Made by a program: the position numbers and the translations under genes. From a virus (Duplodnaviria; Caudoviricetes), in IMG/VR virus record IMGVR_UViG_3300021387_000075: DNA of 64,000 bases, one strand, 5' to 3'. The notes below the pieces were generated by a model. The model worked only from the letters and a program-made list of their open reading frames with translations. It was not told the DNA's origin and did no database searches. Shown here piece after piece: positions 16-55,813 of the stretch (positions within the stretch are counted from its first letter, which is position 1; each line of letters opens with the position of its first letter).

Positions 16-1131
16 ATGGATAATCTACACATTTTAATGAACGGCGTATTTGGACGTAAAGTTCCTGCTGAGTTCGCAGCCGCCGATTATGATTATGAAG
101 CTGCTCTACGTGATGAGCTAGCTAAGCTAATGACCAAAGACGGCAAACATTTTAACCGTCACGTCTTCAATCGTAACAAGGAAGACATCTTTGAGTTATT
201 AGAGCAGAATCTAGAGGAAGTACTACCGCAGAGTGTACAGTCCGCTCTAGATATGTTTGTTGAAACCCTACATTTCGCTCAGGGTACTCGTCCTGAGTTC
301 CGTGTAACTCGCGGCAAGCAGAGGGGCAAGCAGTTTGTTACTCGTGCTACCGAGTCCGGTAACTATGAGACTTTCCGTCTAGATCGTGATCGCTTCGATC
401 TATATATTCAGGCCATTGGTGGCGCTGGATATGTAGACTTCGAGCGTTATCTCGATGGTCTAGAGAGCATGACCGATATTTATGAAGTAATTCAGGAAGG
501 TATTGTTGATCGTCTATTTGAGATGATTCAGGAGTGCTTATTAGCTTCTTGGAACGCCGCTGGGCGTCCTTCTCGTAACAAGGTTGCGGCTAATGCTTTC
601 AATCCTGTTTCTATGAAGAAACTCTGCAACACAGTTGCTGCTTATGGTTCTCCAATTATTTATTGCACACCTGAGTTCGCGGCTGAAATGGTTAATGCTA
701 TTGTTTATAGCAATGCAAAGCCATCTTGGGTCGGCGGCAAGATTTCTGATCAGGATATGATCGATATTCGTGAACGCGGATATATCGGCAAGTTCCAGGG
801 CGTACCAGTTATTGTTATGCCTCAGTCCTTTACCGATGAGACTAACGCTAAGTTAGTTATGAATCCATCTTTTGCTTATGTCCTACCTGCCGGTAAGGAA
901 AAGCTAATTAAGATGGCTTTCGAAGGATCTCCATATTTCCGTGAGTGGGACGATCATGAAGGCGACAATTCTTTCACCCTACAGGGCTATGTAAAGGTTG
1001 GTGTCGGCATGTTCACTACTCCAAACTATTGGGGCATCTATTACAATAGTTCTCTAGACGATGGTAGCGGCTGGGAAGCCTATAACCAGGGTCTAATTCC
1101 AGAACTAGATGATGGTACTGCTAATAACTAA
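16..1131 (+). CDS. Probable major capsid protein
   Basis: 371-aa intact ORF with GGAGG SD, at the head of the virion module and followed by a strong terminator. Strongly biased codon use (CAG, CTA, CGT) and no in-frame TAG. Product inferred from size and position. Confidence 0.7.
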   Translation: MDNLHILMNGVFGRKVPAEFAAADYDYEAALRDELAKLMTKDGKHFNRHVFNRNKEDIFELLEQNLEEVLPQSVQSALDMFVETLHFAQGTRPEFRVTRGKQRGKQFVTRATESGNYETFRLDRDRFDLYIQAIGGAGYVDFERYLDGLESMTDIYEVIQEGIVDRLFEMIQECLLASWNAAGRPSRNKVAANAFNPVSMKKLCNTVAAYGSPIIYCTPEFAAEMVNAIVYSNAKPSWVGGKISDQDMIDIRERGYIGKFQGVPVIVMPQSFTDETNAKLVMNPSFAYVLPAGKEKLIKMAFEGSPYFREWDDHEGDNSFTLQGYVKVGVGMFTTPNYWGIYYNSSLDDGSGWEAYNQGLIPELDDGTANN

Positions 1132-3692: not shown

Positions 3693-4199
3693 ATGGCTAA
3701 TGAAGATGCTGGACAGCGCCGATTTGCTGTAATGGGAGATAATACTTTTAGAATTGCTAATAAACTAATGTCTAATAAAGACTTATGTCGTTTATTAAAA
3801 TACCAAGTACGAGATCCTTTAAATAAAGAAAAATATCCGGATGTAGATGGCGCAGAACTTATCAATAGGCAGATATTGATCGTACCAAAAATCTTTGATG
3901 ACAGTACTGAAAAAATGTCATATGTAACGGCTTTATTTAGTAATTTTGTTGTCAATCAATTAAATCCGGAATTTAAAATCTCCACAATCCGTTTCGATAT
4001 AGCTTGTCCTTACGAGGAATGGCTACTTGATGACAGGACTTTACGTCCATATTTAATTATGGAAGAAATTGATAAAATGTTTAATGAAGCAAAGATGTAG
4101 GGCATTGGAACTTTGTAGTTCCGGCGCGCAGATGCTTTAACATTAAGTCCTTGGATTGGTGGATATTCTATGGTGTATCAAATCAATGAATTTAACTGA
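3693..4199 (+). CDS. Putative tail completion/terminator protein (TAG-recoded)
   Basis: Track ORF 3693..4100 continues through TAGs at 4098 and 4116 (KM*GIGTL*FRRAD...) to TGA 4197-4199. Confidence 0.6.
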
Positions 4200-4965
4200 T
4201 AACGAAGTTTTAAAATTTTTAAAAGGATCTCCGGTATTCATTGATGACATTTGTGCGGTGTTTCCTGCAACCTTAGGTCAGATTGTAGATGAAGGCTATG
4301 ATGAATTTCAAAAATATTTAGGTGTTTTGACCGCGACCAAACCCACTACTTAGCATGATGCTGATTAGGAATTAAAGGATTTGATGGCAAAGCTTACGGA
4401 TTTTTAGTACATTTTATTAATGGCCAATCTTGATCCATAGATGCTGTCTATTATGAAAAAAGGTTTTAAATTTTTCACTCACGAAGATGCAATTTTTTCA
4501 ATGGAGCCAGCACAAATTATTATAGGTCCACCCGCGGAGAAACACCTATTAATTGAGGAAAAATTTTATGATTTTTAGCGTTTACTACGAAGAATGTATT
4601 TTCTTGAGACTGAAGGCGAAGAGATTATTATATATGAAGATGATGATCCTCGTACTAAAGCCATAAAGATGAAGATGCGCGAAAATCGAGAAAAAGTGCG
4701 TAGGGCGAAAGCGAAAAAAGCTAAATAGTCTGGAAGTGATATGCAATTTTCAGATTTAATCGCCAGTATTACGCTTAATGATTGTGGCCTAAATATTTTA
4801 AATGTTTGGGATATTACATATTATGCTTTTCATGACCAACTCAAGCGGATGGGGTGGCGTGATCAGTTTGATATAAATTAGCGCGCGGCGCTTGCCGGCG
4901 CAAAGATTCAAAAGTCGCAACTCAAGCATTGGATGCGTTCAATTGCTGATAGCGGCAAGTCATAA
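4186..4965 (+). CDS. Hypothetical tail-assembly protein (TAG-recoded)
   Basis: ATG 4186 to TAA 4963-4965 with seven in-frame TAGs; 259 aa; abuts the SD of the major tail gene. Confidence 0.65.
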
Positions 4966-4982
4966 TTTGGGAGGTAACTTTT

Positions 4983-5972
4983 ATGGCTAGTAATGTTAAT
5001 ATTTTTGATAAGTATGGCATTAAAGAAGTTGCTAACGTATACTTTGAAGCTCTAGACGATGATCTAGCTGCTGGCGTATATGCTGGCGATATCGTGCTAT
5101 TCCTTGATACTCTAAAAGTTTCCACCATTGAGACCACTGCTGAGAATACAGCTGCTCAGGGCGGCTGGGGCAATCCTAAACTAGTACAGTGGGACTATGG
5201 TAAGGAAATCAATATCACTCTAGAAGATGCTCTAATGTCTCTAGAATCTTTACGTTTCATGCTAGGTGGCGCTATTAAAAAGCCCGAAGCAGAAGCTCCA
5301 GTTGTTGTACGTCATACTGAAGAAGTAGTTTGTGATGAAGGCGGCGTACTACCACAGCCAAAAGATCATTTAACTGGTAAGAAAATGACTCCTAAGGCTA
5401 CTAAAAACCATCCAGTTCGTTTAATCAATTTAACAACTGGCACTCGTACACAGATTAGTGCATCTGGCGATACTCCAGTAGAAGTATATGGAAAAGCAAT
5501 TGATTTTGTTAATCCTGCTTTAATTGGTATGACTACCACTGGAGAAGGTAATGAAGCTACTACTACTGCAACAAAAGTAAAGACCGCTAAAGGCGATCAT
5601 ATCCGTATTTTCTGGGAAGAGGTAGTTACCGGTGCTGAAAACCAAGAGAGCGCGGTTGAAGTAACAATTTCTCCTGATACGTTCCCAGGCACCTATCGTG
5701 TTGTTGGCGATACCTTCATGCGTTCTGAGAAAACTGGTAAGGATGAGCCATTCCAGTTTGTTATCAATAAGGCTAAGGTACAGTCCAATGTTACCCTAAC
5801 TCTACAGGCTGAAGGCGATCCTACTACGTTTGAAATGACTCTAAACGTACTACGTTCTACCAACGATCAGGGCGAAAATGAGATGATGAAACTCGTTCGT
5901 TATGATGTTGGCGCAGCTACTGCTACTACTAGCGGGGATGACCAGGGGTCTATTAATAACTCTAATGGTTAA
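4983..5972 (+). CDS. Major tail (tube) protein
   Basis: 329 aa, GGAGG SD, beta-rich; motifs YGIKEVANV, GGWGNPKLVQWD and LTLQAEGDPTTFEM; upstream of tape measure; no in-frame TAG. Confidence 0.75.
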   Translation: MASNVNIFDKYGIKEVANVYFEALDDDLAAGVYAGDIVLFLDTLKVSTIETTAENTAAQGGWGNPKLVQWDYGKEINITLEDALMSLESLRFMLGGAIKKPEAEAPVVVRHTEEVVCDEGGVLPQPKDHLTGKKMTPKATKNHPVRLINLTTGTRTQISASGDTPVEVYGKAIDFVNPALIGMTTTGEGNEATTTATKVKTAKGDHIRIFWEEVVTGAENQESAVEVTISPDTFPGTYRVVGDTFMRSEKTGKDEPFQFVINKAKVQSNVTLTLQAEGDPTTFEMTLNVLRSTNDQGENEMMKLVRYDVGAATATTSGDDQGSINNSNG

Positions 5973-5985
5973 TTAAATAATTAAT

Positions 5986-6021
5986 TCCTAGGGACTCTTT
6001 GGAGTCCCTAGGATTTTCTTT
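5986..6021 (+). terminator. Rho-independent terminator
   Basis: TCCTAGGGACTC-TTTG-GAGTCCCTAGGA followed by TTTTCTTT. Confidence 0.85.
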
Positions 6022-6043
6022 ACATAAAGGTAGGTGAATACCT

Positions 6044-6931
6044 TTGACACATCAATATTTTGGAATAAAAGAATTATATGAAGTATGCTTACGCGCGAAA
6101 ACTAATATGCAATTTGGTGAGCGATATATTGAAGCTGATGAGCCAGTATTGTATTTTGAAAATATTAGTATGGCTATGTTATCGGAGCAAAGCCGAGAAA
6201 TATACGCGCGAGGCGGTTGGCTTAATTAGCCAAAAGTAATATGGCAAGATCGTTCTGAAATACGTTTTCAAATGTCTGAAGGTGTTGTATCATAGTTTGG
6301 CTTGGGCATTCTTTTAGGTGCGAAAGTTGCGATTAAGGGAAAAGAAAAGCCAATCTTAATGCATAAAACCGAAGGACCATTTGATTTTGCTATTGGAGAA
6401 GAAACTCCGCGTATTTATTTAGAGCATTGGCCAGTAGATTATACATAGAAAAAGACATTTATCTTCGAATATGCGCGTGATGCTGTGTAGAAGAAGATAT
6501 ATGGAAAAGCAATTCATGGAGAGTATAAGGATCCATTTGATCCCGAAAAAGAAACTCCATGTGTTGAATTATACGAAGACAAGGAATTGAATATATTGGC
6601 AGACACCAATAAAAAATATATAGTAGATTATTACTATGAGTATGGGAAAGAAGCGATTTCTTATACATTACAAAAAGAGCGCTTCAACGGTTTGTTCTCC
6701 TTGGAAGGAAAGTTCTATTCTAAGGATGAGAATGAGGGCATTAATTATACGAACATATTATACATGCCCAAGGTTAGGATTGTAAGTGATATTAACTTAC
6801 GATTGGGAGAAAGGGCTGATCCAACGGTGTCCGCGTTTAATATAATAGGGTTGCCGGAGACTGTCGGTGACGATAAAGATTTAATAGTTGAGATTTAGCA
6901 TTTGGGTGAGGATTTAGACCCAGATGTTTGA
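6044..6931 (+). CDS. Second tail-tube-like protein, paralogue of 4983..5972 (TAG-recoded)
   Basis: TTG start; joins track ORFs 6044 and 6587 through TAGs to TGA 6929-6931. FGIKELYEV, RGGWLN*PKVIWQD and LRLGERADPTVSAF mirror the major tail motifs. Confidence 0.65.
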
Positions 6932-30500: not shown

Positions 30501-31016
30501 AAAGAAATTTATGAGAAATTGCAATATTTAACTGCCACAGCGATAAGTGCTGATGGGACCGAATTTAAATAGACAGTATTAGCAGAAGATAATGGTAAAA
30601 GCAAAATAAAAATAAGTAAGTATAAGGGAAAAACATTAAAGTTTACTGCAACAAATGATTATGGTGCAAAGATTACAAAAACATATAAAATTACAGATGA
30701 TAGTACTATAAGCGGATATACAAATGCTTGGACAGAAGGATGCTCTACTTGTGAAGGCCAATGCGGAAAGAACTGCGCTAATGAATGTGCGGGATTATGT
30801 GGAGGTACGTGTAAAGGAGGATGCAAAGGTGGGTGTTCTGGCTGTGGCAATTAGTGTTCCACAGGATGTACTGAATCATGTTCTTCTGGCTGCGATGGAC
30901 AATGTAAAGGAGATTGTGGTTGGGACTGTTCCCATGAGTGTAGCAGCGGTTGTGGAAATAGTTGTCGTCGTGGTTGCGGTAACAATTGTGATAGTTCAGT
31001 TGACAATCATGATTAA
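24571..31016 (+). CDS. Tal-like tail-tip protein, about 2,051 aa after splicing (exons 24571-30231 and 30522-31016; TAG-recoded)
   Basis: ATG 24571 with AGGAGG SD; one frame broken only by TAG up to 30231. Motifs SNLYNIT*QIAEQF, NYETKFEDLF and GISANFISGG*LD. Removing the intron gives the in-frame join KVSSDG|QYLTATAIS, ending TAA 31014-31016. Confidence 0.75.
30232..30521 (+). ncRNA. Group I self-splicing intron (ORF-less, 290 nt)
   Basis: Exon ends UGGU pairing with GCCA (U.G at the 5' splice site). P2 CCGTATA-GTAA-TATACGG; P3 CATGGTG/CGCCATG; P4 CGGGGA/TCCCG; P7 GACTAT/ATAGTC with AAGATATAGTC; P9 TCATAAA-GAAA-TTTATGA; terminal G at 30521. Confidence 0.9.
30741..30989 (+). repeat. CxxxC repeat, 22 Cys in 83 aa, at the C-terminus of the tail-tip protein
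   Basis: CSTCEGQCGKNCANECAGLCGGTCKGGCKGGCSGCGN*CSTGCTESCSSGCDGQCKGDCGWDCSHECSSGCGNSCRRGCGNNC. Confidence 0.9.
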
Positions 31017-31061
31017 AAAAAATAAGCCCGGACTCTTAATGAGTCCGGGCCTTTCTTTTTT
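31015..31061. terminator. Bidirectional terminator between the convergent arms
   Basis: A-run, GCCCGGACTC-TTAAT-GAGTCCGGGC, then T-run. Confidence 0.85.
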
Positions 31062-31446
31062 ATTCAAATTGCAGGAAGGGTTCAAGGAATGACGCTTCAG
31101 CAGGGGTAAATTCTAAGTTTTCAATATCCTCTACAGGAATAGGTTTAGCTTCAATTTCAACTTCTTCCATAATTAGCTTATTGATTTCATCCATGTAAGC
31201 TTGCATATTTTCTTGAGTAAACTGATATTCGTTTTTCTCGTTTAATTCAAATTCTCCATCTTCTTTACGCTTAGCATATTTTTCAATTAGCTTTAGCCGC
31301 GTATCATTGTAAGATGTCAGAACTTCTTCTAGTTTCTTTAACAAGCGTGCTACTTGAAAAGCGGTTCGTCCTTTAAGTACCATTCCGCTCAATTTCTGTA
31401 GTGCTTCTTGTCCTTCTACAACTTCTTTTAATGTAATTTTCATCAT
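31060..31446 (-). CDS. Hypothetical protein (DUF1617-like, tentative)
   Basis: Helical protein MMKITLKEVVEGQEALQKL...; ATG overlaps the resolvase TGA. Confidence 0.6.
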   Translation of the reverse strand: MMKITLKEVVEGQEALQKLSGMVLKGRTAFQVARLLKKLEEVLTSYNDTRLKLIEKYAKRKEDGEFELNEKNEYQFTQENMQAYMDEINKLIMEEVEIEAKPIPVEDIENLEFTPAEASFLEPFLQFE

Positions 31447-32192
31447 ATAACTTCTCCCCAAGTACTATGTACTTTAATTTTATTACAAAAATATTTTCCA
31501 ATACAAATTGCATCAGCTTCGTCTTCGGTGCATTGCATATCATACCATATTCTAACCTTAGCCTATGCTGCTTTCTTGCGTGCTTCACGATGTTGGTCTC
31601 CATCGCCGACGCCGCAATAACTACGCCATTCACTCGGATAGACTAATTCGGAGTCTATACTTGCTTCAAATATAGTATCTAAGATTACACCTTGAAGATT
31701 GGCTAATGTTTGGAATGTTTTGACCTAAGTTTGTGCTTTATTCGGGCCATAGCTTTGTAATTGAATGTTTTCAATACCTACAAAATCCGGCTCCCATTCT
31801 TTAAGTGCAGCTTTAAGCCAATGCTTAACATTGTTAATACGTTCTGTTGTAGGAAGCGCGGCACTTGTTTTAAAAGTACCATATCCTACTAATATCTTAT
31901 CATCATATATAGAATAGCCAGTAATTCCTGTTGCCGCGTCAAGAGCGAGAATACGTGTTATATCCTCGCCCTTGGGCGGCACCTTATTTTTTTTCACCTT
32001 ATACGGATCACCGGCCATGCAAATATCGCACATTTTATGCTTGCGCCACTATTCAAATGTTTGTTGCTACACATGCCCCTACGGGCATTGCATATCAAGT
32101 GGCGTTTTTAAATTCTTATAACTATCGCTTATAAGTTTCCATCCTTCCGCTTCTAAGGCATTTTGGACTGTGTATATATTAATTGATGCCAT
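31443..32192 (-). CDS. RuvC-like Holliday junction resolvase with N-terminal Zn-binding domain (TAG-recoded)
   Basis: ATG 32192 overlaps the dUTPase TAA; five in-frame TAGs. Motifs CP*GH...CDIC, ILALDAATGITGY, VGIENIQ, VYPSEWR and EDEADAICIG; TGA at 31443. Confidence 0.8.
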
Positions 32193-32983
32193 TAGGTTCC
32201 AGTAGAGCCAAATCCGCCCTCTCCACGATCAGAATCTGTTAGAGAATCGACAACATTCGCCTTAAAGCGGTAAGAAGGCATTACTAGCATCTGAGCGATA
32301 CGATCGCCCTTATGAATTTCATATGGATCATCGCTGATATTATCATAAATCGCGCGTACCTCACCACGATAGCCACTATCAATTACACCTACACTATTGC
32401 TTAAACGTAGAGGTGTTTTCGCACCCATACTAGAACGTGGTAGGACAAAGGCTACCCATCCTTCTGGTAGCTGAATATGTACGCCCGTCGCTACTGGGGT
32501 ACCATGCGTATGAGGTTGAATTGTTATATCTTCAAACGCATACATATCTGCAGCGGCATCACTATCATGAGCATATGTAGGAACTTGTGCGCCGTCCTCT
32601 AGCATAATTGGTAGCTCGATTGAATAGAAGTGATATTTATCATAAGCAGTATCAAAGGTTTCATAAATCTTTTCCACTACTTTATCTACTACTTTACGCT
32701 TATTGCCTGCAATAATCTGATCGCCATAAACAATTTGATTTACAAATTCTTTTAGAGACTTTACTGATTCTTTGGCTTCTGCGCGGGTCGTACCCTGAGC
32801 CTCTAAGTTGGCAATAATCTGACTTACAGACTGATTAATCTGCTCCTTAGAAAAAGATTGATCAATACTCTGTAGAATTGTATCTAACGCTTCGTCAGAA
32901 AATAAATTATCATCCATATCTTTAAGATTTTTTACTGCGTCTATAAACGCCTGTACTTGCTGATTAGCTAATTCTTCGTTCAT
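32192..32983 (-). CDS. dut: Trimeric dUTPase with about 120-aa N-terminal extension
   Basis: AAADMY, PRSS, GVIDSGYRGE, GDRIAQ and RGEGGFGSTG motifs. Confidence 0.92.
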   Translation of the reverse strand: MNEELANQQVQAFIDAVKNLKDMDDNLFSDEALDTILQSIDQSFSKEQINQSVSQIIANLEAQGTTRAEAKESVKSLKEFVNQIVYGDQIIAGNKRKVVDKVVEKIYETFDTAYDKYHFYSIELPIMLEDGAQVPTYAHDSDAAADMYAFEDITIQPHTHGTPVATGVHIQLPEGWVAFVLPRSSMGAKTPLRLSNSVGVIDSGYRGEVRAIYDNISDDPYEIHKGDRIAQMLVMPSYRFKANVVDSLTDSDRGEGGFGSTGT

Positions 32984-32997
32984 TCCTTTATCCTCCT

Positions 32998-33213
32998 TTA
33001 GATTTCATATGAAATCGTAACTTCGACCATCCACCATTCTTCGGTAATTTCTCCGGTCTTACGATCTTTTTTAGTTTTATAATCAACCTTAGTCTTTGTA
33101 ATAGTAAATCCTTCTTTTATTGCGCGATTTTTCCAATCATCTACAACAGAATTCGCTTCTTCTTCTGTATCGCAACGACAAGTTTTTACCCACTTAGTAT
33201 CACAAATCGCCAT
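32998..33213 (-). CDS. Hypothetical protein
   Basis: Tightly packed ORF; likely start MAICDTKW. Confidence 0.6.
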   Translation of the reverse strand: MAICDTKWVKTCRCDTEEEANSVVDDWKNRAIKEGFTITKTKVDYKTKKDRKTGEITEEWWMVEVTISYEI

Positions 33214-33535
33214 TTTCTTCAATCTCCTTTGCTTTTTTCTCATTTAGTTCTCTTAGTTTTTGAATTAAATCTATGTAATTAAGCTTTGCGGCAGTTTCAT
33301 TAATCTCATCAATCTGAGATTTTTGTGCCATCTTAGCTTTCTTACCTTTATTTTGCTTAGCCAATGCGCGCCGTTGAGCGCGATTTAGCTTGACGCCGCC
33401 ATTGATTTTTGTAATAGTGAAATCTGTAATCTTTTTCATGATTTCTTCATCATTATCGGCGCCAACTTGTTTCTCAGCTTCTGCATAATCAATTCCTTGA
33501 ATTTCTGCAAAGCGCTTAATTAGATCATTTTCCAT
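33200..33535 (-). CDS. Hypothetical protein
   Basis: 111-aa ORF with GGAGG SD; contains LNRAQRRAL. Confidence 0.65.
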   Translation of the reverse strand: MENDLIKRFAEIQGIDYAEAEKQVGADNDEEIMKKITDFTITKINGGVKLNRAQRRALAKQNKGKKAKMAQKSQIDEINETAAKLNYIDLIQKLRELNEKKAKEIEENGDL

Positions 33536-34570
33536 TTATCCTCCTGCATTTCGGTTATATCCGAATGTCTGAGTATCAAAAAATTCAATATAATATTTTT
33601 CAAGCTCGGAAAGCTTATCTTTATCACAATAAGTGATTGCTTCGATTGACCAATTCCAGAATCCTGTTTTTAGTATTTCATGATGTACGGCTTGATCTGC
33701 AATACTCTTAATACCAATTGAGGACTTAAAGTGGTCAGTAATTCTTTTCTTTATATCAGTACTTTTTCCGATATAAGCTTTGCCGCTATCCAAATTCGTT
33801 AGCTTATAAATTCCCGGCTCTGCTTTAATTTCTATACGCTTAAAAGTATCATCCAAATTAGGCTTAACATATTCAGCCCAAACCAATTTTGAAATAATAT
33901 CTGGATGTTGTACTTTCGCCGCGACAGTAGTAAGCAAGAATTCAATATCTTCTCGGTATTCCTCAGGTAACTATATAGTATAGAATAACTTTGCCTACTT
34001 ATCCATTTCGTATTGGAGTAAGGGTTTCCGCAAACTTAGAAAGCGTTCGCGCTATTGCTCTTCGGCAATTTGATATTCTTTAACCTTGGCTAGTGATTCT
34101 TCAATTTTGTCAGCCATCCATTTCTTAGTTTCTTCGGCCTACTTATCACATTCTTTCGTAGTTTTTTCTAACTCAGATTCCAGAAATGCTTTTTTTTCGT
34201 TAAACGTTTCATCTAATGCTGCTTGGCGTTTTTCTCGCTATTCATTCATTAAAGAATCTAATTCAGTCATTTTTTCATTTACTAGATGATTATATTCATC
34301 ACGCGCATCCGCTAGGCTTGTTTTTGCGCTATCTAATGAATTATATATATCAGTTAATTTTTGCTATTCTGTATTAACTTTAATTTGTACATCTAGTAAT
34401 TTACTACGATATTGTTCAAGTGCTTCTTTATCAAAGTTTAACTCTTCTTTAAGTTTAACCGCTTGTTCGTGATATTCGTCTAATAACTATGTATCAACCG
34501 ATTGTTTTTGATAGAGTTTATACCCCAGAAATCCAATAATAATTAAGCATAAGATTAAAACTACAACCAT
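33536..34570 (-). CDS. Membrane-anchored coiled-coil GIY-YIG nuclease, 344 aa (TAG-recoded)
   Basis: ATG 34570 with AAGGTGA SD; N-terminal hydrophobic VVVLILCLIIIGFLGY; E/K-rich coiled coil with seven TAGs; C-terminal GIYKLTN...YIGKS...LEKYYI...GYN. Confidence 0.8.
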
Positions 34571-34597
34571 ATCATCACCTTTTTCTTTTGATACTTA

Positions 34598-34626
34598 ATT
34601 ATATCAGATTTCTGGGGAAATGTCAA
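34598..34626 (-). promoter_or_regulatory. sigmaA-type promoter
   Basis: TTGACA-17 nt-TATAAT, perfect consensus. Confidence 0.85.
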
Positions 34627-34637
34627 ATATTTGAATA

Positions 34638-34844
34638 TTACATTTCATCTTTTATATATAAGCCACAATGACAAGTTTCTCCAACTTGTACATTATTAAG
34701 AAAATCATAGCACATACATTTATATTCTGATTTGCCCTTGCTTTGATAAATACATGGACAATAGCCATCATTTTCTTTTAAGCCCTGACGAATCATTTCT
34801 ACAATTTCTTTATCTGGATTAATATGTACTTTCATTTTATCCAC
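34638..34844 (-). CDS. Ferredoxin:thioredoxin reductase catalytic-subunit-like protein
   Basis: GYCPC...CMC...CHCGLY cysteine pattern. Confidence 0.75.
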   Translation of the reverse strand: MDKMKVHINPDKEIVEMIRQGLKENDGYCPCIYQSKGKSEYKCMCYDFLNNVQVGETCHCGLYIKDEM

Positions 34845-35311
34845 TCCGCATATTGATTATTTGACGCAAGTTTTACACCAAGAATAGGATCAAACCGTTC
34901 TTCTAAGTTTTGAACATAACGTCCCCATTTAATAATTATATTATGATAATTTCTTATACTTTGTTCAGTAATAAAATCTTCTCCTTGCCCATAACCAGTA
35001 TAAATTATAATAGGATCATTACATTGTTTATCTATACGAATAAATTTGATAAGCTCTATTAAATCCATATAGCTATCAAATGGTTCTAAACCTTGAAAAC
35101 AAAAAGCTTTAGTTAGAGGATTTTGTTTATACATATTCCAAATATACTTGCCACTAACTTCTATATCGGGTTCGGCTGCCAAGCCGCTATTCTGACAGAC
35201 TTGACAGCCATTTAACTTATCACACTTAAAATCACAATATGGGAATTCTATTGTTAAGCAGGGTTCTTTATAATTCGTACAATCATAATCAATTATTCCC
35301 TTTACTTTCAT
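34832..35311 (-). CDS. nrdG: Anaerobic ribonucleotide reductase activating protein
   Basis: CDFKC...CQN, GLEPF, IYTGY, KWGRY and LASNNQ motifs; adjacent to nrdD. Confidence 0.85.
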   Translation of the reverse strand: MKVKGIIDYDCTNYKEPCLTIEFPYCDFKCDKLNGCQVCQNSGLAAEPDIEVSGKYIWNMYKQNPLTKAFCFQGLEPFDSYMDLIELIKFIRIDKQCNDPIIIYTGYGQGEDFITEQSIRNYHNIIIKWGRYVQNLEERFDPILGVKLASNNQYAEWIK

Positions 35312-37223
35312 TATTCATATGCTCCCATTGTCTCATTTTAAATTCTGCTTTACGCTCTTTACTCCAACTTTTAATTGGAGTATAGAAACCAACTATACGC
35401 GTATATTCAGTAACTACATCCCCGCCACAAATAGGGCATTGAGTGCCATAGAAGGCATGATTTTTCGCGCAAGCTTGAATTTTAGTATTAAAGGCAAAAT
35501 ATGTTAATCCTTGGTCAGCAATATAATTAACCGCATTCCAAGCTTTTTCAAAGCTATCAAATGGCGCATCTATATTTAAGTGAGCTATACTGCCGCCATT
35601 ACAATAACTATCAAATAGAGAAGCAATACGAATACGTTCTACCATAGTAGTTTTAATCCCAAGCGGAATAAATTGATTTCCATAAAGTGGCAAGTCTTTT
35701 ACTACTGTGTCTGGATAGAAGAATTCATCAGCAAGCTGCATCTTCGCGGCAGCAGATTCACCGGGAATTTGTTCTACATTAATCTTATAATCTTTATCTG
35801 CGGCAAAAGCGTCTTTTGTTTCATGTAGAACCTGGAAAATGCGCTTACCAAAAGCATCTGCCTTATCGGTATAGAAAACATTTCCCAGTTCGTCTTCGCG
35901 CGTATATCCAAATGTTTTCATTGTCTCATAAATACCTATAATACCTACTGTATTATATAGGTGCTCAAAATCTACGATACCTTTGGAAAAATTAGGAAGC
36001 AGTCCTTTCTCCACATTGCGGCGAATAATATAACGAACGCAATCCAAGGCTTTACAATCTAGTTCTACAATTTCTTTGAGCCTGATTAAATAATCTTCTT
36101 CATTTTCGGCTTCTAATGCTATTCGTGCGAGATTTACCGTAGACACTTTTACGGAACCGACTTTTAGTGCAGTGCCGCCAATACTATTAAAATATCCTAA
36201 ATCTTCAATATTGCTTTTTAGACGGCAGCAATTGCTTAGAGAGTTTACACTATCATCAATAAATAAATTAGAGTCGCTCCAAATACGATTATGTTCGACG
36301 CCCCAGCGCGCGAACTCTTCATCTTGAAATTTACCATCCTTCCGCAACAAAGAAATCGTAAGTACAGGGAAGGTAAACATATTATGTTGGCGTATCTCAG
36401 CGATAGTTTCCATAAAGATTTTTTGGAAATCTTGAATTTCTTTTAAATCATCAATCATATAGGAACCATCAGGAAATTGAGCGCCACCAAATAAAGCTTC
36501 TAGATAAGCCATATCGAATACTGAACAATTAGTAAAAGCAGATTGCATACCATCTCGGACATATGGCTGATTTACAGCATATACAAAACGTTGAATCTGC
36601 TGACGAGCATAATAATCTGAGTCTTTAGTTGCATAACCTGTAGCACAGTCTTTCTTCCAAAAATAATACATATAAGGAATAATATTGGGTAAACCAACAG
36701 CGCCGGAACTACGATTGGCGGCAAAGCTAATAAATTCTTTTACGAAGTCTACAAAAGTACTAAGATGTTGCGGCGGCTCAGCATTGAAATTATTTAAAAA
36801 GAATAGCCCTTTTTCTGCAACATCTTTTAAATCATATGCAAAACAATAATGTACATAAGTACTTGTATCAGCATCATGCATATATAATGCCTTAGTCCAT
36901 TCTTTTTCTAGCCAAAGATTAGCGTCTTTAAAGCCATATCGTTTATTCATTTCATAATATATTTTATTAAACGCTAATAGTTTTCTATGCGGCTTAGGCA
37001 TCTCATTCATTAGAGTACGCATGTCTTTATTCCCTACGTTAGAGTTGCCATCAACAGACGCATCCGCGACTGTATCTTTATCAATAAAGTTATCAATAAA
37101 GTCAGTATAAGAAAGCTGTTTATCACCAAAACCATTTAAATATGCCATTTCTTCGCCATACTTTTCGCTCAAGCGATTGTAAGCAGTTTGAAAATTTTTA
37201 CTTAATCGAACCTTAATATCCAT
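35289..37223 (-). CDS. nrdD: Class III (anaerobic) ribonucleoside-triphosphate reductase
   Basis: YMHD, FTFPV, SNCCRL, EQIPGES, CPICG and the glycyl-radical motif TRIVGF. Confidence 0.93.
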   Translation of the reverse strand: MDIKVRLSKNFQTAYNRLSEKYGEEMAYLNGFGDKQLSYTDFIDNFIDKDTVADASVDGNSNVGNKDMRTLMNEMPKPHRKLLAFNKIYYEMNKRYGFKDANLWLEKEWTKALYMHDADTSTYVHYCFAYDLKDVAEKGLFFLNNFNAEPPQHLSTFVDFVKEFISFAANRSSGAVGLPNIIPYMYYFWKKDCATGYATKDSDYYARQQIQRFVYAVNQPYVRDGMQSAFTNCSVFDMAYLEALFGGAQFPDGSYMIDDLKEIQDFQKIFMETIAEIRQHNMFTFPVLTISLLRKDGKFQDEEFARWGVEHNRIWSDSNLFIDDSVNSLSNCCRLKSNIEDLGYFNSIGGTALKVGSVKVSTVNLARIALEAENEEDYLIRLKEIVELDCKALDCVRYIIRRNVEKGLLPNFSKGIVDFEHLYNTVGIIGIYETMKTFGYTREDELGNVFYTDKADAFGKRIFQVLHETKDAFAADKDYKINVEQIPGESAAAKMQLADEFFYPDTVVKDLPLYGNQFIPLGIKTTMVERIRIASLFDSYCNGGSIAHLNIDAPFDSFEKAWNAVNYIADQGLTYFAFNTKIQACAKNHAFYGTQCPICGGDVVTEYTRIVGFYTPIKSWSKERKAEFKMRQWEHMNNESKGNN

Positions 37224-37224
37224 A

Positions 37225-37422
37225 TTATGCCTCCTTAATCCAATTATTAATTTCTACAGGAGACATTAAGTATTGTTCTCCAGTAAATACTACTGGCGCG
37301 CGGTCAGTATCTAGTTCACAGTTTTCAAATGGAATTTCTTGATATGTAATATTTTTATCAGTCATTTTCTTTTTTACCATTTCACAAATAGGACATGCTG
37401 GTAAAGTATAAATATAAATCAT
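37225..37422 (-). CDS. NrdH/glutaredoxin-like redoxin
   Basis: IYIYTLPACPICEMVKK (CxxC) and APV; upstream of nrdD. Confidence 0.8.
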   Translation of the reverse strand: MIYIYTLPACPICEMVKKKMTDKNITYQEIPFENCELDTDRAPVVFTGEQYLMSPVEINNWIKEA

Positions 37423-37427
37423 CAATT

Positions 37428-37634
37428 TCACTTCCTAAGTTTCTTTCCACAATATGGACATCTTTCTTGGTCTGAGAAATCATAAGACTCAGTACCGTGC
37501 GGGCATAGCGCCTGCAATTGTTTAATTTCATCACGAATAGTATATACCTTATCAGTACGTTCCATTCGTGATAGAGCATCACGCAAATCATTGCTTAATT
37601 GCTCATACCGGGTTTTAATTTCTGATTGATTCAT
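37428..37634 (-). CDS. Small Zn-ribbon protein
   Basis: CPH...CPYCGK. Confidence 0.6.
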   Translation of the reverse strand: MNQSEIKTRYEQLSNDLRDALSRMERTDKVYTIRDEIKQLQALCPHGTESYDFSDQERCPYCGKKLRK

Positions 37635-38713
37635 TTAATCCACCTTCCTGCTTTTGATAGTGATGCAGTTGTCTGCATAAATAATATATTTTGACGTGGA
37701 AATTTTTCCACCAAAATCCTAGCTTGTTCTTTCGCGGCTAAAACGTTTTCTTGCTTTGATTTATTTGGTATGTACTCGTATATTGTATGAGTTTTCCGCA
37801 AATGACTTGCTGACCAAGTTGCAATTAATCGAGATAAGTCAGCTAGTGGATCAAAGCAACCTAATGTTGGTTCTTCATACTTCAATCTAATTGGAATCCT
37901 GTTAGACCAAAGTGTATAAAGAAGATTCATTTTATATACGAAATTTTTATAATATTCTGTTTGATAATGATAAGACCCGCCCAATGAAAGGAAAATCTGC
38001 GAGCGAGGCATTATCAATTCTAAAAGTTTGTTTTTATAAGTTCTCAACATATATTTTGTATCTTGTAGAGGAATATTGATATCTAGAAATACATCATTAC
38101 TTTTGCTAATTATTTCATTTTCGCGCACCTTAAAAAAGTCAGATAGTTTATAAAAATGTACTGGATGGATAAAATTTACAGAGGAAGGTTTATGCTCTGC
38201 TATATCGTCAATAATGCGCTCCCATCCAGGCGTGAAAAAATCACGGTCATAAATATAAACTCGTTTTCTGCGCGCAACCGGAGGAATTGGTAATTCTTTT
38301 TCGCCAGCAAAGCGCCGATAATATGTATCATCCAATATGTGTTCAATGCGCTTTTCCGTTTCTCCTGCGTGATATTTCTCTTTTAAAAAATTACCGTAAA
38401 TAGCGGGCCGGGGAAACGTATAATCAATTAGCTCGTTTTCAAAAGGAATATATTTCTTATTAGTAAAGGCCGAGCCGCCATAAATAACATTTGGCTCACG
38501 ACGCAATGCTTCGGGAATATCAATACAATTATCATTCTCGCTGAATATATAAATTTTATCATAACCAGCAAACTCAGTTTCATCTAAGTTAATTAAGCGA
38601 CAATATTTATTTTCTTCGTGCTTATAATACTCTGCCAGCTTCATAATTTCTAAATTAGGAGGCGGAAGAGTTTTCTGCGCCTTCTGTAAATTTAAATCTA
38701 CTAAGCCGATCAT
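37631..38713 (-). CDS. Hypothetical protein resembling phage radical-SAM-like proteins but lacking CxxxCxxC
   Basis: N-terminal IGLVD...PNLEIMKLAEYYK...YDKIY...GGSAF; no cluster-binding motif. Confidence 0.5.
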   Translation of the reverse strand: MIGLVDLNLQKAQKTLPPPNLEIMKLAEYYKHEENKYCRLINLDETEFAGYDKIYIFSENDNCIDIPEALRREPNVIYGGSAFTNKKYIPFENELIDYTFPRPAIYGNFLKEKYHAGETEKRIEHILDDTYYRRFAGEKELPIPPVARRKRVYIYDRDFFTPGWERIIDDIAEHKPSSVNFIHPVHFYKLSDFFKVRENEIISKSNDVFLDINIPLQDTKYMLRTYKNKLLELIMPRSQIFLSLGGSYHYQTEYYKNFVYKMNLLYTLWSNRIPIRLKYEEPTLGCFDPLADLSRLIATWSASHLRKTHTIYEYIPNKSKQENVLAAKEQARILVEKFPRQNILFMQTTASLSKAGRWIK

Positions 38714-41700
38714 TCTTCCACCTCCATTCTTTTAGTTTGAAACTCTAAAATACCATCTTCATTTATACTTACAATCTTTGAAATTACTGGATAAAACGAG
38801 TCTTTCCGTTTCTTAGGTACGAAGTCTTGTCCTCTACGAATACCCTGTATCATCAGTAACGAGCCGCGCGAGAACCAACTCTTTTCGATGACGTGCTTTA
38901 TATCGTCATCTCCTCTTTGAGAAAGTTGCTTATCATATATAGCGTATTGATTCTTATATACCTTTACATTTACAACCCCAGTTGGCGTTAATAATGTAAC
39001 CGTATTCTTTAACTTATTCTTATCAATTACTGTGCCAATAATTCTATGAAGTTTAAATACTCTTACTTCATTACCATCTCTTCCAGTAAAAGTATATTCA
39101 ATTTCTGGCTCTTCTGGTAAAGTAAAGAAGTCATCATAATTATGCGCTGCCGCCGCGAGCTCATGTTCATGACTATAAAATGATACAGATTCCATTTCCC
39201 AATGCGAGATATTTCCAGTTGCATATTTATCATATACTTCTTTATAAAGAGAATCATTCAATGCCTTTAATACTGTATCCTTATTCTCTTTTAAATAAAT
39301 CCGCATTGGATCCATTGCCTTTTTATATATATTATCCCAACGTGTCTGCGGAATCTGCACTCCATTATCAATTAAATCTGCGCTAAAATTATTTCCAATG
39401 AAATTTACTGCGGCTTCATTTAAATCATAATTATCTCCATTTTTACAAGTCTTTAAAAACTTATTGAACAAGAACAATCTCTGATAAAACTTCATATCTT
39501 CTGGTATCAGATTTTTATTAATCAACATCTGCATATTCTGTAATGTTAATCTTTGTTTGCTATCTGCTACCATATCAATATACTTTTCCATAATCTTTTC
39601 GCGCGGAATCTTCATCAATTCATCAAATGCTCCGCACTTAATTAGATTAGTCATTTGAACCTTATTTACTTTAACTTTTTCAAGGAAGTCCTCCAACGAA
39701 CTAAACGGACGCATTTCCATAATTGCTCGAATGACTGAGGTCGACAAACGGGTAATTCCTCGCAATCCATACAAGATTTCATTTCTTTCAACGACTGGGG
39801 TAAAAGTATAAGAGGAATCATTGATGTTTGGCGGCGCAACTTTAATCCCGTAATTATTAAATCTTCCAATTGCTGTTGCGACTTTTCCGTAATCAACTGT
39901 TTTTGTTTTTTCTTTTTTCTTATCTTCTTTTTCTCCATCAATTACCTCATTCTCTTCTTCCCATTCTTCAAGCTCTTCATCATCCGCATCTTCGTCTGGC
40001 GCGGCTTCAACCACGATTGAAGCTTCACCTTCTTCATCATATTCAACATTCTGCGAACCACCGCTATCCACGATTAAGTTTGCGGTATTCCAGAATATGA
40101 TAGGATAAAACCGCGCAAGATTCATTTCCTGTAATGCGACTACTGAATATGCGTAAGTATGAGATGCATTAAATCCATATCCACGGCTTAATGCAACTTC
40201 TACATTCCATACATACGAACAGAAGTTTTCATCTAATTGTTTTTCCTTTACTCGCGCGAAAAACTCCGATGTTAATTGTTCGTACTCTTTCGGATTCTTC
40301 TTTGCGATACTTTTTCTCAAACGGTCGGCCCACTGCAAATCCCAACCGCCGCATTCTGGCAATTGAACTAGCTGCATGAATTGCTCTTGTGTAATTGACA
40401 TTCCATCTGAGATATCCAATTCTCTATGAAGAATCGCACGCTCTTCATCATTTAATCCATATTGAATCATTTCTTGTTCCCAATCATTGGGATGGAAACG
40501 GAATCTTGCGTACTTATCCAATGGACTTTCCGCGCCTTTTTCTGTTGCCATTAGACGAATTACAGAGTTTAATACTGCTAATTCATCAACGTTTCTTGGA
40601 TGAGTTAATGCGATTCCTCGTGTTCCAGATTGCTGTTCCATCTGAAACAAACTAACAATTTCGTGATGTTGAATCATATCCCACATCTTTTTATCATCAC
40701 GATTTATTTTATATACATTTAAAACCGATTCATAGGTTTCGCGCAATGTTGCTTTTTTCTCAACATATCCTTGCTCTACCAACAAATCAAGACAAGTATG
40801 AATCTTATCCGCGGCTTCAACACTCAGTAAGTCCATCTTGATTTCAGAAACATCTTCCAAATCATGTAGCTCAAACTGAGTAATAATCGTACCATCGGGC
40901 GCCCGCATCAATGCACTTGATTCTGTAAAATCTTCGTCCTTAAATACAACACCGCCCGCGTGAATACCAACGCCGCAAATCAATCCTTCGATGCGACTTG
41001 CGACTTCCCATAACTGAGGATATTTGCTAATTTCATTTATAAAAGTCTGATTTGGCTCAATCCCTGCTTCTTCATCGCCATAATACATTTGTTTCAATGT
41101 ATATGATTGGCCACGTTCCGCACTAATCAGATTAGCAATATATGATGCTTCATCAACATCAATCCCTAATCCTCTGGCCGCAGTTAAAATTGCCGAACGA
41201 GATTTTTCGGTTCTAAAAGTTGCTACATTTGATACTCGATTTTCACCATATACTTTTCTAAGATATTCCAAAACCTGTCCACGCCGAAGCCCTTCAATAT
41301 CAACGTCAATATCGAGAACAGAGACACGAGATGGATTAAGGAAACGCCAAGGATACATCTTCGTCTTTTCGCGCAAACAATTTATCTGAATAATATCCAG
41401 CGCGTACAGAAGAACGAATCCGCCACCGGAACCTCGGGCCGGAAGAACAATACTACCAGCGTTCCAACACTCATCTATAATCTTTTGAAGATTTAAGAAA
41501 TATGCTGACCATTGCGCCTTATTCACCTGAGAAGATTCCCAGGTCATTTCAAGACACTCATTTAATGCGGCATAAGCTTCTTCATTTTGAAGGTCCTCAT
41601 GCTTTTTAATACCAGTGATAACCGCATCCACCAATATCCTATCTGCTTTATATGGTGAAGAAGAGAATTTTTCTAATTCCGGTATTACTGAAAAATAATA

Positions 41701-46061: not shown

Positions 46062-46076
46062 TTATTACTCCCCTTC

Positions 46077-47660
46077 CTATATTTGAATTACTCGTTCTCC
46101 ATTACTTGAAAACAAATCAATCGGTTCATTTATCGGCTGATTCTCTGCTGTCGTAATAAATAAATCTTCACGCTCTCCCGTACCTAAATGTAATCTTGTC
46201 CATATACGAACCATTTTATAGCGGCCACGCCGCATCTTATAAATATCTAATACATGAGTTGGTTTATTCTCGAAAATATCTGGTGAAATCATACCAGCAT
46301 TTACAGCAATTCTTAAACCTGGCAGCATCGCATTCCATCCTTTCTCTGAAATACGAGTCATTACATAACCTACGTCTGCTTTATCGGCGATACTTTTCGC
46401 GCCACGAATTGTCTTCTCATCTTTAAATGCCATTTCTTCATCATTCATCGCAAGTGCATTTACCTGAGTTGCAGAAAAGATAAATAAACCATAATCTTTT
46501 GCTACCTGTTTCAATTGATTTGCCATCATCATCAATATAACATCTTCGCGCAAATTATTTCTGGAAAACTGCGCCATCATACTTGCTGTCGAATGAATAT
46601 AATCGAAGAATACATATTTTACATTATCTACTGTCGCATACTTTCTAATTGTCGCTTCTACGTTTTGAAGATTCGGATCACTGATTTCCTCAATTAGAAA
46701 ATATCCGCTATATTCCTCCATAATCTTACCAGCGCATTTTACTCTGGTTAATTCACCTAATTCATACTTACTTGTTAAAATATGATCTTCATCTACTCCG
46801 GACAAATATGCTAACATAATCGTCTGAATCTCTTCTTTATCCATTTCTGTTACGATGAATAATACTTTACGCGGCTCTCTCGGATTGCCTTTCGCATCTA
46901 CTTCTTCAATAAATGCTTTCTCCTTATGTGACCAACGCTTTGGATATGCGAGATGACACGCATCAAAAATACTTGTACGAGACTTACCTGCGCTTGTGCT
47001 GGCACTTTTCAAAAAGAAACATCCTTCTCGTGCTCCGCGGCAGACCGAACTAAATATTTTACCTTCCAAGCTTGGACCGATACTTGGAGATTTTCTTAAA
47101 TCTTCAATCAACTCAAATATTCCTTCCGATGGATCTCCTTTTAATCTGCCGCCATTTAAAAATTCATTTCTTATCTCAGAATAATTCTTCTCTACACTAT
47201 TTAATATATCCTCTAACGATGATTCATTTAAATGCTGTATTACTTGTTGTTCTTTTAACGGATCTACTGTACTTTTCTCATCAACATAAAATTCACTAAT
47301 ATCATAATTCGCACGCTGTAATTTCCTTAATAATGAACACTTTTTTAGTCGATCATAATAAAGTTTAAAGTTGCCTAAATTCGCGGACTCATATGCATTT
47401 TTAATAAAATCTAAGCCGCCCTCGCCTTTATAAATTTGTAATGCCGCGCCGCCATTACGTTCAATCTCTTGGTCTATTTCAAGTACAGATAATTCCGTTG
47501 CGCCCTGCTCATACATTTTTTTAATTGTATTAAAACATACGCGCGCGGGTCTAAAATCAAAATCGACTGGATGAATATCCGAATATTCCAAAAGTAATTG
47601 AGGCTGATACATTAAGCAACCGATAATATTGCGATAAGCCGCACTATCGGATAACGTCAT
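46077..47660 (-). CDS. DnaB-like replicative helicase
   Basis: Walker A-like STSAGKSR, FFDYIH, SATQVN, IADKAD and KMRRGR. Ends at TAG, with TAA four codons later. Confidence 0.85.
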   Translation of the reverse strand: MTLSDSAAYRNIIGCLMYQPQLLLEYSDIHPVDFDFRPARVCFNTIKKMYEQGATELSVLEIDQEIERNGGAALQIYKGEGGLDFIKNAYESANLGNFKLYYDRLKKCSLLRKLQRANYDISEFYVDEKSTVDPLKEQQVIQHLNESSLEDILNSVEKNYSEIRNEFLNGGRLKGDPSEGIFELIEDLRKSPSIGPSLEGKIFSSVCRGAREGCFFLKSASTSAGKSRTSIFDACHLAYPKRWSHKEKAFIEEVDAKGNPREPRKVLFIVTEMDKEEIQTIMLAYLSGVDEDHILTSKYELGELTRVKCAGKIMEEYSGYFLIEEISDPNLQNVEATIRKYATVDNVKYVFFDYIHSTASMMAQFSRNNLREDVILMMMANQLKQVAKDYGLFIFSATQVNALAMNDEEMAFKDEKTIRGAKSIADKADVGYVMTRISEKGWNAMLPGLRIAVNAGMISPDIFENKPTHVLDIYKMRRGRYKMVRIWTRLHLGTGEREDLFITTAENQPINEPIDLFSSNGERVIQI

Positions 47661-54597: not shown

Positions 54598-55813
54598 TTA
54601 AATATTCCTCCCAAATTTTATTAGATTTATGCTGATTACATTTTTTACATAGAATTTGACAATTCTCTTCAACGGTACGTCCACCTTCGCTCCAAGGAAT
54701 TTTATGGTCTGCCTGTGCATTTGCCCATGACATATCAATTCCACATAAAGCACATTTATGATTTTGACGTTCATACGCTCTACGTTTTACTGCGTCAGAA
54801 AATGTTCTAAAGTTTAATTCTCTAGGATTATGAGTAAATACATAAGTATAAATACCTTTACATTTTTCTACTTCTTCATGATCTTCGTCGCCACGAAGCA
54901 ATGCAACTAATTCTTTTTCAATTTCATCTGGATCAACGATTACATTATGAAAATTATTATATAACCAGCCCCAATCAACGGCTTTCATTAATGAAAGTCG
55001 ATCTTCAGCTTGATTAATAAATGTAGAATTAATCCAGTCAATAATTTTATAAAATTCATCACATACTTTTTGTGCTTCGTCTATATTATTATGACATTTA
55101 TTCATAAGAGTTAGAATATCATCATTACTCACCCATTTAAGAGCAGTTTCTAACAAACCTTGGCGATTCCATTTAGATGCACTACTAGTAATATTACGAG
55201 ATAAAGTATAACCTGCACAGTTTAATACAGAAAAATAATGTTTAAGCAATTCGGTGCCTTCGCCCATAAAAATCGCATTTCTACGTTCTTGGTCTGTCAA
55301 TACTACTGAATTAGCATTAATTTTTTCAAACCATTTTAATTGCGTATCTAATGAACCAAGACATTTATACATATTAATTTGATAATTGTTGATAATATTC
55401 CAAACTTCCGGTAATTCATAATACAAATCTTCATAGAAAAGATTTTTACCATTATAGGTGATAGAGAATTGTCCATCAATGAATCTACAAAGCGCAATCA
55501 GTCTCTGTTGACCATCAATTACGACCGTCAAATCTGCTAAAGAACCATCTGGATAAACTTCTTGACCTAGATAAATTGTACCGATAGGAGCATTATTTGC
55601 AATAGTAGTAATTAGTTTTTTATTTTGGTCTTCATTCCATACCGCATTACGCTGAAATGAAGGACGAAGACAAATATGCTTATTAAGGCACCATGCACCG
55701 CCGCTTTCACCATTATCTACAAATCCTTCAGCTAATTCTGTAATTTTATAAGAAATTGGCTGCATTGTAAAATCCGTACCCCAGAGTTCAAGAGAATCTT
55801 TCATCAAATTCAT
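54590..55813 (-). CDS. DUF262 (ParB/GmrS-like) plus HNH endonuclease
   Basis: RPSFQR, IDGQQR and FEKIN; C-terminal CALC...ADHKIPWSEGG...CQILCKKCN. Confidence 0.85.
   Translation of the reverse strand: MNLMKDSLELWGTDFTMQPISYKITELAEGFVDNGESGGAWCLNKHICLRPSFQRNAVWNEDQNKKLITTIANNAPIGTIYLGQEVYPDGSLADLTVVIDGQQRLIALCRFIDGQFSITYNGKNLFYEDLYYELPEVWNIINNYQINMYKCLGSLDTQLKWFEKINANSVVLTDQERRNAIFMGEGTELLKHYFSVLNCAGYTLSRNITSSASKWNRQGLLETALKWVSNDDILTLMNKCHNNIDEAQKVCDEFYKIIDWINSTFINQAEDRLSLMKAVDWGWLYNNFHNVIVDPDEIEKELVALLRGDEDHEEVEKCKGIYTYVFTHNPRELNFRTFSDAVKRRAYERQNHKCALCGIDMSWANAQADHKIPWSEGGRTVEENCQILCKKCNQHKSNKIWEEYLNE

Follow-up and report, generated by a model that had tools for sequence, protein, structure and literature searches.

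In-frame amber codons in a RuvC-like resolvase gene inside a standard-code gene run of a TAG-recoded rumen phage

For recoded phages, Borges et al. (10.1101/2021.08.26.457843) have proposed that early genes are translated in the standard code and that in-frame stops delay the late proteins; they also propose that selection enriches or depletes these stops by gene family, and describe the replication genes as 'variably' recoded. Block-wise code partitions have also been reported with Mgcod (10.1101/2022.06.29.495998). The phage analysed here, represented by a 64,000-nucleotide stretch of viral DNA (IMG/VR record IMGVR_UViG_3300021387_000075, hereafter the window), resembles these code-switch phages in that TAG is read as Gln, presumably via a phage tRNA(CUA), with the replication genes kept in the standard code and the structural genes recoded. 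However, the published partitions are mostly block-wise and strand-linked and place the stress on lysis and structural genes, whereas in the window single cistrons are recoded within an overlap-coupled run of standard-code genes. The clade also differs from the published cases in being of a non-crAss, Firmicutes-type lineage with both unrecoded and TAG=Glu sisters. In the text of Borges et al. (10.1101/2021.08.26.457843), neither 'resolvase' nor 'nuclease' is used, and none of the papers searched names the resolvase; the paper on phAss-1 (PMC10607447) mentions recoded 'DNA-processing enzymes'. Since the code-switch principle has already been published by Borges et al., the resolvase described below is a well-documented further case and not a new principle. 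Among described recoded phages, phAss-1 ('Phassvirus', OQ749652) is the nearest, with 36% and 30% identity to the window in its capsid and RuvC proteins, and here the situation is the opposite: the RuvC homologue of phAss-1 comprises 169 aa, lacks the N-terminal domain and contains 0 TAG, whilst its RecJ-like gene contains 4 TAGs.

On the level of the protein, the fold predicted for the window's resolvase is common to the RuvC enzymes of Lactococcus phage bIL67 (PDB 4KTW) and of bacteria (PDB 1HJR, 4LD0), with Foldseek E values of about 4e-5 to 6e-4 and a probability of 1.0. Both have acidic residues on the first and fourth strands and on the last helix, and the gene lies at the end of the replication module in bIL67 as well. 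Sequence identity to these known enzymes is only about 17–22%, however, and the window's resolvase differs from them through an extra 65-aa Cys/His domain at the N-terminus and through the in-frame TAG codons of its gene. In phages T4 and T7, branches in replicated DNA are removed before packaging by endonuclease VII (gp49) and endonuclease I (gp3), respectively, and T4 gp49 is largely a late protein. By analogy with these roles, the window's resolvase may likewise be needed for packaging, although the enzymes are functional analogues with unrelated folds and the timing in T4 and T7 is achieved by transcription, not by the genetic code.

The phage, the resolvase and its gene run

The window belongs to a large rumen phage of roughly 180–190 kb that reads TAG as Gln and falls into a non-crAss, Firmicutes-type clade. 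Relatives in IMG/VR have genomes of 180–190 kb with terminal repeats and 24–30 tRNAs, whilst blastn of the region against phage records returned no match. A crAss-like reading, suggested by the giant ORFs, was dropped: the matches of capsid and resolvase are Enterococcus EF1/VRE9, SPbeta-like phages and phAss-1, all of them distant kin. No suppressor tRNA with a CUA anticodon was found within the 64-kb window; a tRNA(CUA) gene is present in all three complete relatives (G001, G002 and G003).

The + strand frame of 31443..32192 is closed, and the minus strand forms a single 249-aa ORF once TAG is read as Gln; the gene therefore lies on the minus strand, which the earlier note had not stated. 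It sits in a six-gene run of about 3.6 kb, bounded by a promoter and a terminator:

34598..34626, minus: consensus host-type promoter, TTGACA-17-TGaTATAAT, 28 nt upstream of the GIY-YIG start
33536..34570, minus: gene of a 344-aa protein with a C-terminal GIY-YIG nuclease domain, first in the putative operon; 7 TAG
32998..33535, minus: ORFs of 111 aa and 81 aa, lying between GIY-YIG and dut; neither has a TAG in the window
32192..32983, minus: dUTPase gene (dut); 0 TAG, 5 CAA, 10 CAG
31443..32192, minus: RuvC-like Holliday-junction resolvase gene; 249 aa under TAG=Gln, stop TGA
31060..31446, minus: 128-aa gene (phrog_1401); 0 TAG, own strong Shine-Dalgarno GGGGAGAAG
31024..31052, both strands: bidirectional intrinsic terminator where the two arms converge; no other minus-strand terminator-like site lies in 30900–39000

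The cistrons on either side of the resolvase are joined to it by overlaps, of 1 nt between the dut TAA and the resolvase ATG (TAATG) and of 4 nt between the resolvase TGA and the ATG of the 128-aa gene (ATGA), and no good Shine-Dalgarno precedes the resolvase ATG. On the minus strand from 34598 to 31060 we found neither a promoter-like site above 9/12 nor a terminator. The overlap of dut stop and resolvase start (1–4 nt) is kept in 38/41 recoded related loci that cover dut, and most of the 49 loci covering the region, recoded or not, have a TTGAC[AT]-17-TGnTATAAT promoter that stands 11–40 nt ahead of the GIY-YIG orthologue. From the overlaps, the promoter and the terminator we infer that the six genes are most likely transcribed as one mRNA from the consensus host-type promoter. 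Within the window, the same strict promoter class also precedes PolB, both topoisomerase genes and the HNH gene, and it is absent from the window's virion arm.

Profile searches matched the resolvase to phrog_827 (E=1.1e-19, positions 3–158 of 161) and phrog_159 (E=1.7e-17), and the Pfam RuvC family (PF02075) is covered over positions 1–142 of 148, with a score that narrowly misses the cut-off (21.6 bits against 22.2; E=2e-4). An alignment of 14 orthologues provided the invariant residues of its two domains:

31998..32192, minus: N-terminal domain of ~65 aa, putative zinc finger; invariant C36, H40, C55 and C58; TAG at codons 38, 42 and 48
31473..31955, minus: RuvC/RNase H-like nuclease domain, residues 80–240; invariant D85, E141, D224 and D227; TAG at codons 156 and 210

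Judged by the range of the profile alignment, D85/E141/D224/D227 would be the counterparts of D7/E66/D138/D141 in RuvC. For the N-terminal domain (pLDDT 70–85), Pfam and PHROG searches gave no family, with a weak match to phrog_681 'endonuclease', and a search of the PDB sequences with the resolvase alignment profile gave no match. An AF2 model based on 14 close sequences has low confidence (mean pLDDT 60); its 12 best fold matches in the PDB are all RuvC, that of bIL67 included, with a TM of ~0.45, and support for the predicted RNase H-like fold is moderate. As far as can be read from the sequence, the product is a RuvC-type junction resolvase with an additional zinc-finger-like N-terminal domain, and would be expected to cut four-way junctions as a structure-specific dimer.

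The earlier note had counted five in-frame TAGs in this gene, three in the Zn domain and two inside the RuvC fold, and had described both coupled neighbours as free of TAG. Both statements hold, with dut and 31060..31446 at 0 TAG and the five codons placed as follows:

32079..32081, minus: in-frame TAG, resolvase codon 38
32067..32069, minus: in-frame TAG, codon 42; Gln or TAG in 46/46 orthologues
32049..32051, minus: in-frame TAG, codon 48
31725..31727, minus: in-frame TAG, codon 156; conserved Gln column
31563..31565, minus: in-frame TAG, codon 210; conserved Gln column

The reading of TAG as Gln follows from the alignment: columns 42, 44, 144, 146, 156, 167 and 210 are occupied by Gln or TAG in at least 80% of 46 sequences, and columns 42, 144, 146, 167 and 210 in all 46. 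Codons in these seven conserved columns switch between CAA/CAG and TAG, which occurs in 36 alignment columns overall; no in-frame TAA or TGA was found in any of the 46 full-length orthologues.

TAG codons in the replication arm and among relatives

The minus arm encodes PolB, a RecJ-like exonuclease, primase, DnaB, Sak4, topoisomerase II, a methyltransferase, a DUF262-HNH nuclease, NrdD/G and dut. After correction of start codons the part of this arm within the window comprises 35 genes with 354 Gln-type codons, and all 12 internal TAGs fall into just two of them: the resolvase (5/16 Gln-type codons) and the GIY-YIG gene at 33536..34570 (7/20; hypergeometric P=1.9e-13). The claim that only two genes of the arm contain TAG and that both are nucleases thus stands for the two genes themselves, but the implied association with nucleases does not extend further, as the RecJ-like exonuclease and the DUF262-HNH endonuclease of the same arm contain 0 TAG. 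The remaining arm ORFs with one apparent TAG turned out to be start-codon artefacts, with the exception of DnaB (46065..47660, minus), the sole arm gene to be terminated by TAG: this codon (46077–46079, codon 528/531) is followed by TAA four codons on, and is probably a genuine early stop, with the TAA acting as back-up stop when suppression is on.

The convergent + arm (1–31016) holds the virion genes, including a tape-measure gene of 5,233 codons with 163 TAGs. Within it, the capsid-like gene (16–1131), a 147-aa gene (1210–1653) and the major tail gene (4983–5972), all on the + strand, contain 0 TAG and almost no CAA, so that Gln is encoded by CAG only; that these high-copy genes shun CAA as well points to general codon optimisation and not to specific avoidance of TAG.

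In order to compare the pattern across the clade, two scans of IMG/VR were used, yielding 51 loci with resolvase orthologues of 60–97% identity, of which 42 are recoded and 9 unrecoded; genome-wide comparison of TAG was based on the three complete relatives. For the recoded loci, the TAG share of Gln-type codons and the number of loci with at least one TAG are:

Tail genes (two pooled): 0.51; 25/25 and 31/31
Resolvase: 0.42; 41/42
GIY-YIG: 0.40; 41/41
hyp360: 0.21; 27/34
128-aa gene: 0.12; 13/37
111-aa ORF: 0.09; 17/40
dut: 0.014; 5/41
NrdD: 0.005; 2/30
PolB: 0.001; 1/31
NrdG: 0; 0/17

Resolvase orthologues in recoded relatives are therefore anything but TAG-free, and their TAG density comes near to that of the virion genes, whilst dut and the replisome genes are almost without TAG. 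Fisher's test on the TAG shares of RuvC and dut gave 8e-62 for the 42 recoded loci pooled, a P value that overstates independence since the loci are related. In the recoded relatives, dut has 196 CAG against 6 TAG and PolB 413 CAG against 1 TAG, although CAG is converted to TAG by one transition; genes that are rich in CAG and yet nearly devoid of TAG indicate strong selection against TAG, a selection from which the resolvase is exempt. On the RuvC gene tree, parsimony requires at least 166 gains or losses of TAG, which shows that the TAG state is dynamically maintained and was not inherited once. The nine unrecoded sister loci (L091, L094, L095, L096, L098, L099, L108, L109 and L112) retain the gene order with 0 TAG in tail genes, RuvC and GIY-YIG, and they nest among the recoded clades on this tree, indicating repeated gain or loss of recoding.

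The division is not absolute. The weakly recoded loci L005, L008, L100 and L104 have 0–1 TAG in RuvC, and G001 (L049–L058) carries single internal TAGs in core replication genes (PolB codon 650, RecJ 155, DnaB 187 and NrdD 226), so that the early/late split is leaky. Other recoded genes of the arm differ by lineage: PIN-PhoH contains 6 TAGs in G002 (88261–89574; L073:8261–9574) and in G003 (146414–147667) but 0 in G001, and the dNMP kinase gene (G002 85920–86480) has 4 TAGs in G002 only. The hyp360 gene (37631–38713, minus; no family assigned) is likewise variable, with 0 TAG in the window and 5–8 in L003, L004, L006, L007, L017, L080, L103 and L107.

Alignment suggests that TAG means Glu in a subclade of the relatives (L107 and L097, also L104 and L100). 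Of 125 aligned TAGs in L107, 44 stand opposite Glu, 15 opposite Asp and 11 opposite Gln of the window's proteins, and in the resolvases of L107 (10004–10741) and L097 a TAG occupies the position of the catalytic Glu (window residue 141), with the conserved Gln columns encoded by CAA/CAG; L101, the sister of L107, has TAG at the Gln columns. The TAG=Glu lineage nevertheless has TAG-rich RuvC (9) and GIY-YIG (27) genes alongside TAG-free dut, NrdD/G and PolB. The same split of genes under two meanings of TAG shows that the partition follows the gene and not the history of particular codons.

All three complete relatives have a conserved, TAG-free 114-aa ORF 30–45 nt upstream of the tRNA(CUA) gene:

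G001, 165157–165501 (L057:5157–5501): 114-aa ORF
G002, 54779–55123: 114-aa ORF, with its own consensus promoter at 54677–54705
G003, 5440–5784, minus: 114-aa ORF

Searches of this ORF against Pfam and PHROG gave no family.

A probable delay by code switch and its alternatives

Full-length resolvase requires the phage amber suppressor and should thus appear after its co-transcribed neighbours. As long as tRNA(CUA) is inactive, ribosomes would stop at codon 38 of the resolvase and release an inert peptide of 37 residues, and dut together with the 128-aa gene, the latter from its own Shine-Dalgarno, would be translated normally; once suppression is on, full resolvase would be produced early enough to resolve branched concatemers before they are packaged. 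Because of its five TAGs, the yield of resolvase would vary with about the fifth power of suppression efficiency, making its onset switch-like. Completion of a tape-measure protein across 163 TAGs would imply a late suppression of about 0.97–0.99 per codon, at which five TAGs would cost the resolvase at most about 13%: the codons would hence act as an early lock and not as a late dose limiter. We assign a probability of roughly 0.6 to such a code-switch lock, in which full resolvase depends on phage tRNA(CUA) and so comes later than dut, and in which no direct selection is assumed. We read the TAGs as mainly tolerated in an enzyme that is not needed early, with the lock as a consequence; direct selection is possible. 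Were TAG simply tolerated wherever a gene is not needed early, one would expect a TAG share close to that of ordinary late genes, as is the case here. Tolerance is further favoured by the share lying slightly under that of the late genes, by the weakly recoded relatives with 0–1 TAG, by the unrecoded sisters and by the TAG-free nucleases of the arm. The constancy of TAG in 41/42 loci and under two meanings of the codon is compatible with selection and tolerance alike. Tests for selection based on the position of the first TAG or on the presence of at least one TAG were rejected as uninformative, since drift would give the same result with a TAG share of ~0.4 over ~15 Gln sites.

Among the alternatives, it is conceivable, if doubtful, that the TAGs were positively selected as a timer delaying a late-acting or dangerous DNA-cutting enzyme within an early operon. 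Both constantly recoded genes of the arm, the resolvase and GIY-YIG, are nucleases, their TAGs persist in 41/42 and 41/41 recoded relatives, respectively, and in the TAG=Gln as well as the TAG=Glu lineages, a TAG lies ahead of the catalytic domain in almost all orthologues, and selection of this kind on gene families has been proposed by Borges et al. (10.1101/2021.08.26.457843). On the other hand, ~15 Gln sites suffice for drift alone to predict at least one TAG, the resolvase share of 0.42 does not exceed the 0.51 of late genes, and the four weakly recoded loci manage with 0–1 TAG in RuvC. The nine unrecoded sisters, which have the same gene order and no lock, show that the lock is dispensable. 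That nucleases are locked is moreover no rule, given the TAG-free RecJ-like and DUF262-HNH genes of the same arm and the absence of TAG from the RuvC of phAss-1. The earlier note's proposal that recoding is applied gene by gene is borne out by single recoded genes inside a tightly coupled run; its further suggestion, that recoding is applied to delay late-acting or harmful enzymes, would imply selection for the TAGs and does not extend to nucleases in general. A stronger form of selection can be put forward only tentatively: the amber codons would form a selected, transcription-independent lock within one operon, with the number of TAGs per cistron setting an ultrasensitive suppressor threshold at which RuvC and GIY-YIG are switched on, and selection would have kept this lock through the change from Gln to Glu.

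Other explanations invoke expression level, transcription or composition. Incomplete suppression at each TAG might hold the copy number of the resolvase low throughout infection, with timing being irrelevant, and the absence of TAG from high-copy virion genes (capsid 16..1131, major tail 4983..5972) as well as the lack of a Shine-Dalgarno for the resolvase, fitting a low-abundance enzyme, agree with this. We nevertheless regard it as unlikely: the 163-TAG tape-measure gene would need near-complete late suppression, under which five TAGs cost a few percent, the high-copy genes avoid CAA as well in what is a general codon bias, and replication genes of low CAI such as PolB carry 0 TAG. Slightly less likely still is that the resolvase is made from a late promoter of its own or from another late transcript, so that the TAGs mirror late transcription and gate nothing within a shared mRNA. 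Scanning k-mers ahead of TAG-rich genes for a late-promoter motif yielded no usable candidate, which leaves some room for an internal promoter; the 1–4 nt overlap of dut and resolvase in 38/41 loci, the stretch from 34598 to 31060 with no terminator and no promoter-like site above 9/12, and the TAG-rich GIY-YIG gene directly behind the consensus promoter all argue against it. Finally, the TAGs could be an artefact of low expression, AT richness, recent horizontal origin or gene decay, for which the absence of CAG from the resolvase and its lowish CAI of 0.42 (calculated with Gln codons left out) may be cited. This we consider very improbable. The CAI and the GC3 of 0.31 lie within the range of the TAG-free arm genes, 12 of which have an equal or lower CAI or a lower GC3; PolB, at a CAI of 0.41, has no TAG beside its 49 Gln codons, and arm genes with a GC3 of 0.17–0.20 are also free of TAG, so that low expression or AT bias alone does not explain the TAGs of the resolvase. 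In addition, the frame is open in 46/46 full-length orthologues with invariant catalytic residues, TAG alternates with CAA/CAG at conserved Gln columns, and the pattern is stable down to 60% sequence identity.

With regard to transcription in the relatives, a consensus host-type promoter also stands ahead of the structural arm's first TAG-rich gene in G003 (75545–75574, +) and in G002 (about 166.2 kb, minus). The host polymerase, left unmodified, may accordingly transcribe late genes too, whose timing would then come mainly from the code switch, and as such promoters stand before some TAG-rich genes, promoter type alone does not date a transcript as early.

Returning to the code-switch lock, the conserved run with its adjacent TAG-free and TAG-rich cistrons constitutes a natural experiment for the timing hypothesis, and the sister phages, being unrecoded, TAG=Gln or TAG=Glu, offer a natural contrast. 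The locus is also a warning to annotators, as block-wise code callers miss or fragment single recoded genes in standard-code blocks. In the deposited annotation of phAss-1 (L079, OQ749652 53717–62196), the RecJ-like gene (locus 4744–6321, 4 TAGs) and the ThyX gene are fragmented, and the RuvC homologue (locus 4007–4516) is annotated as a hypothetical protein.
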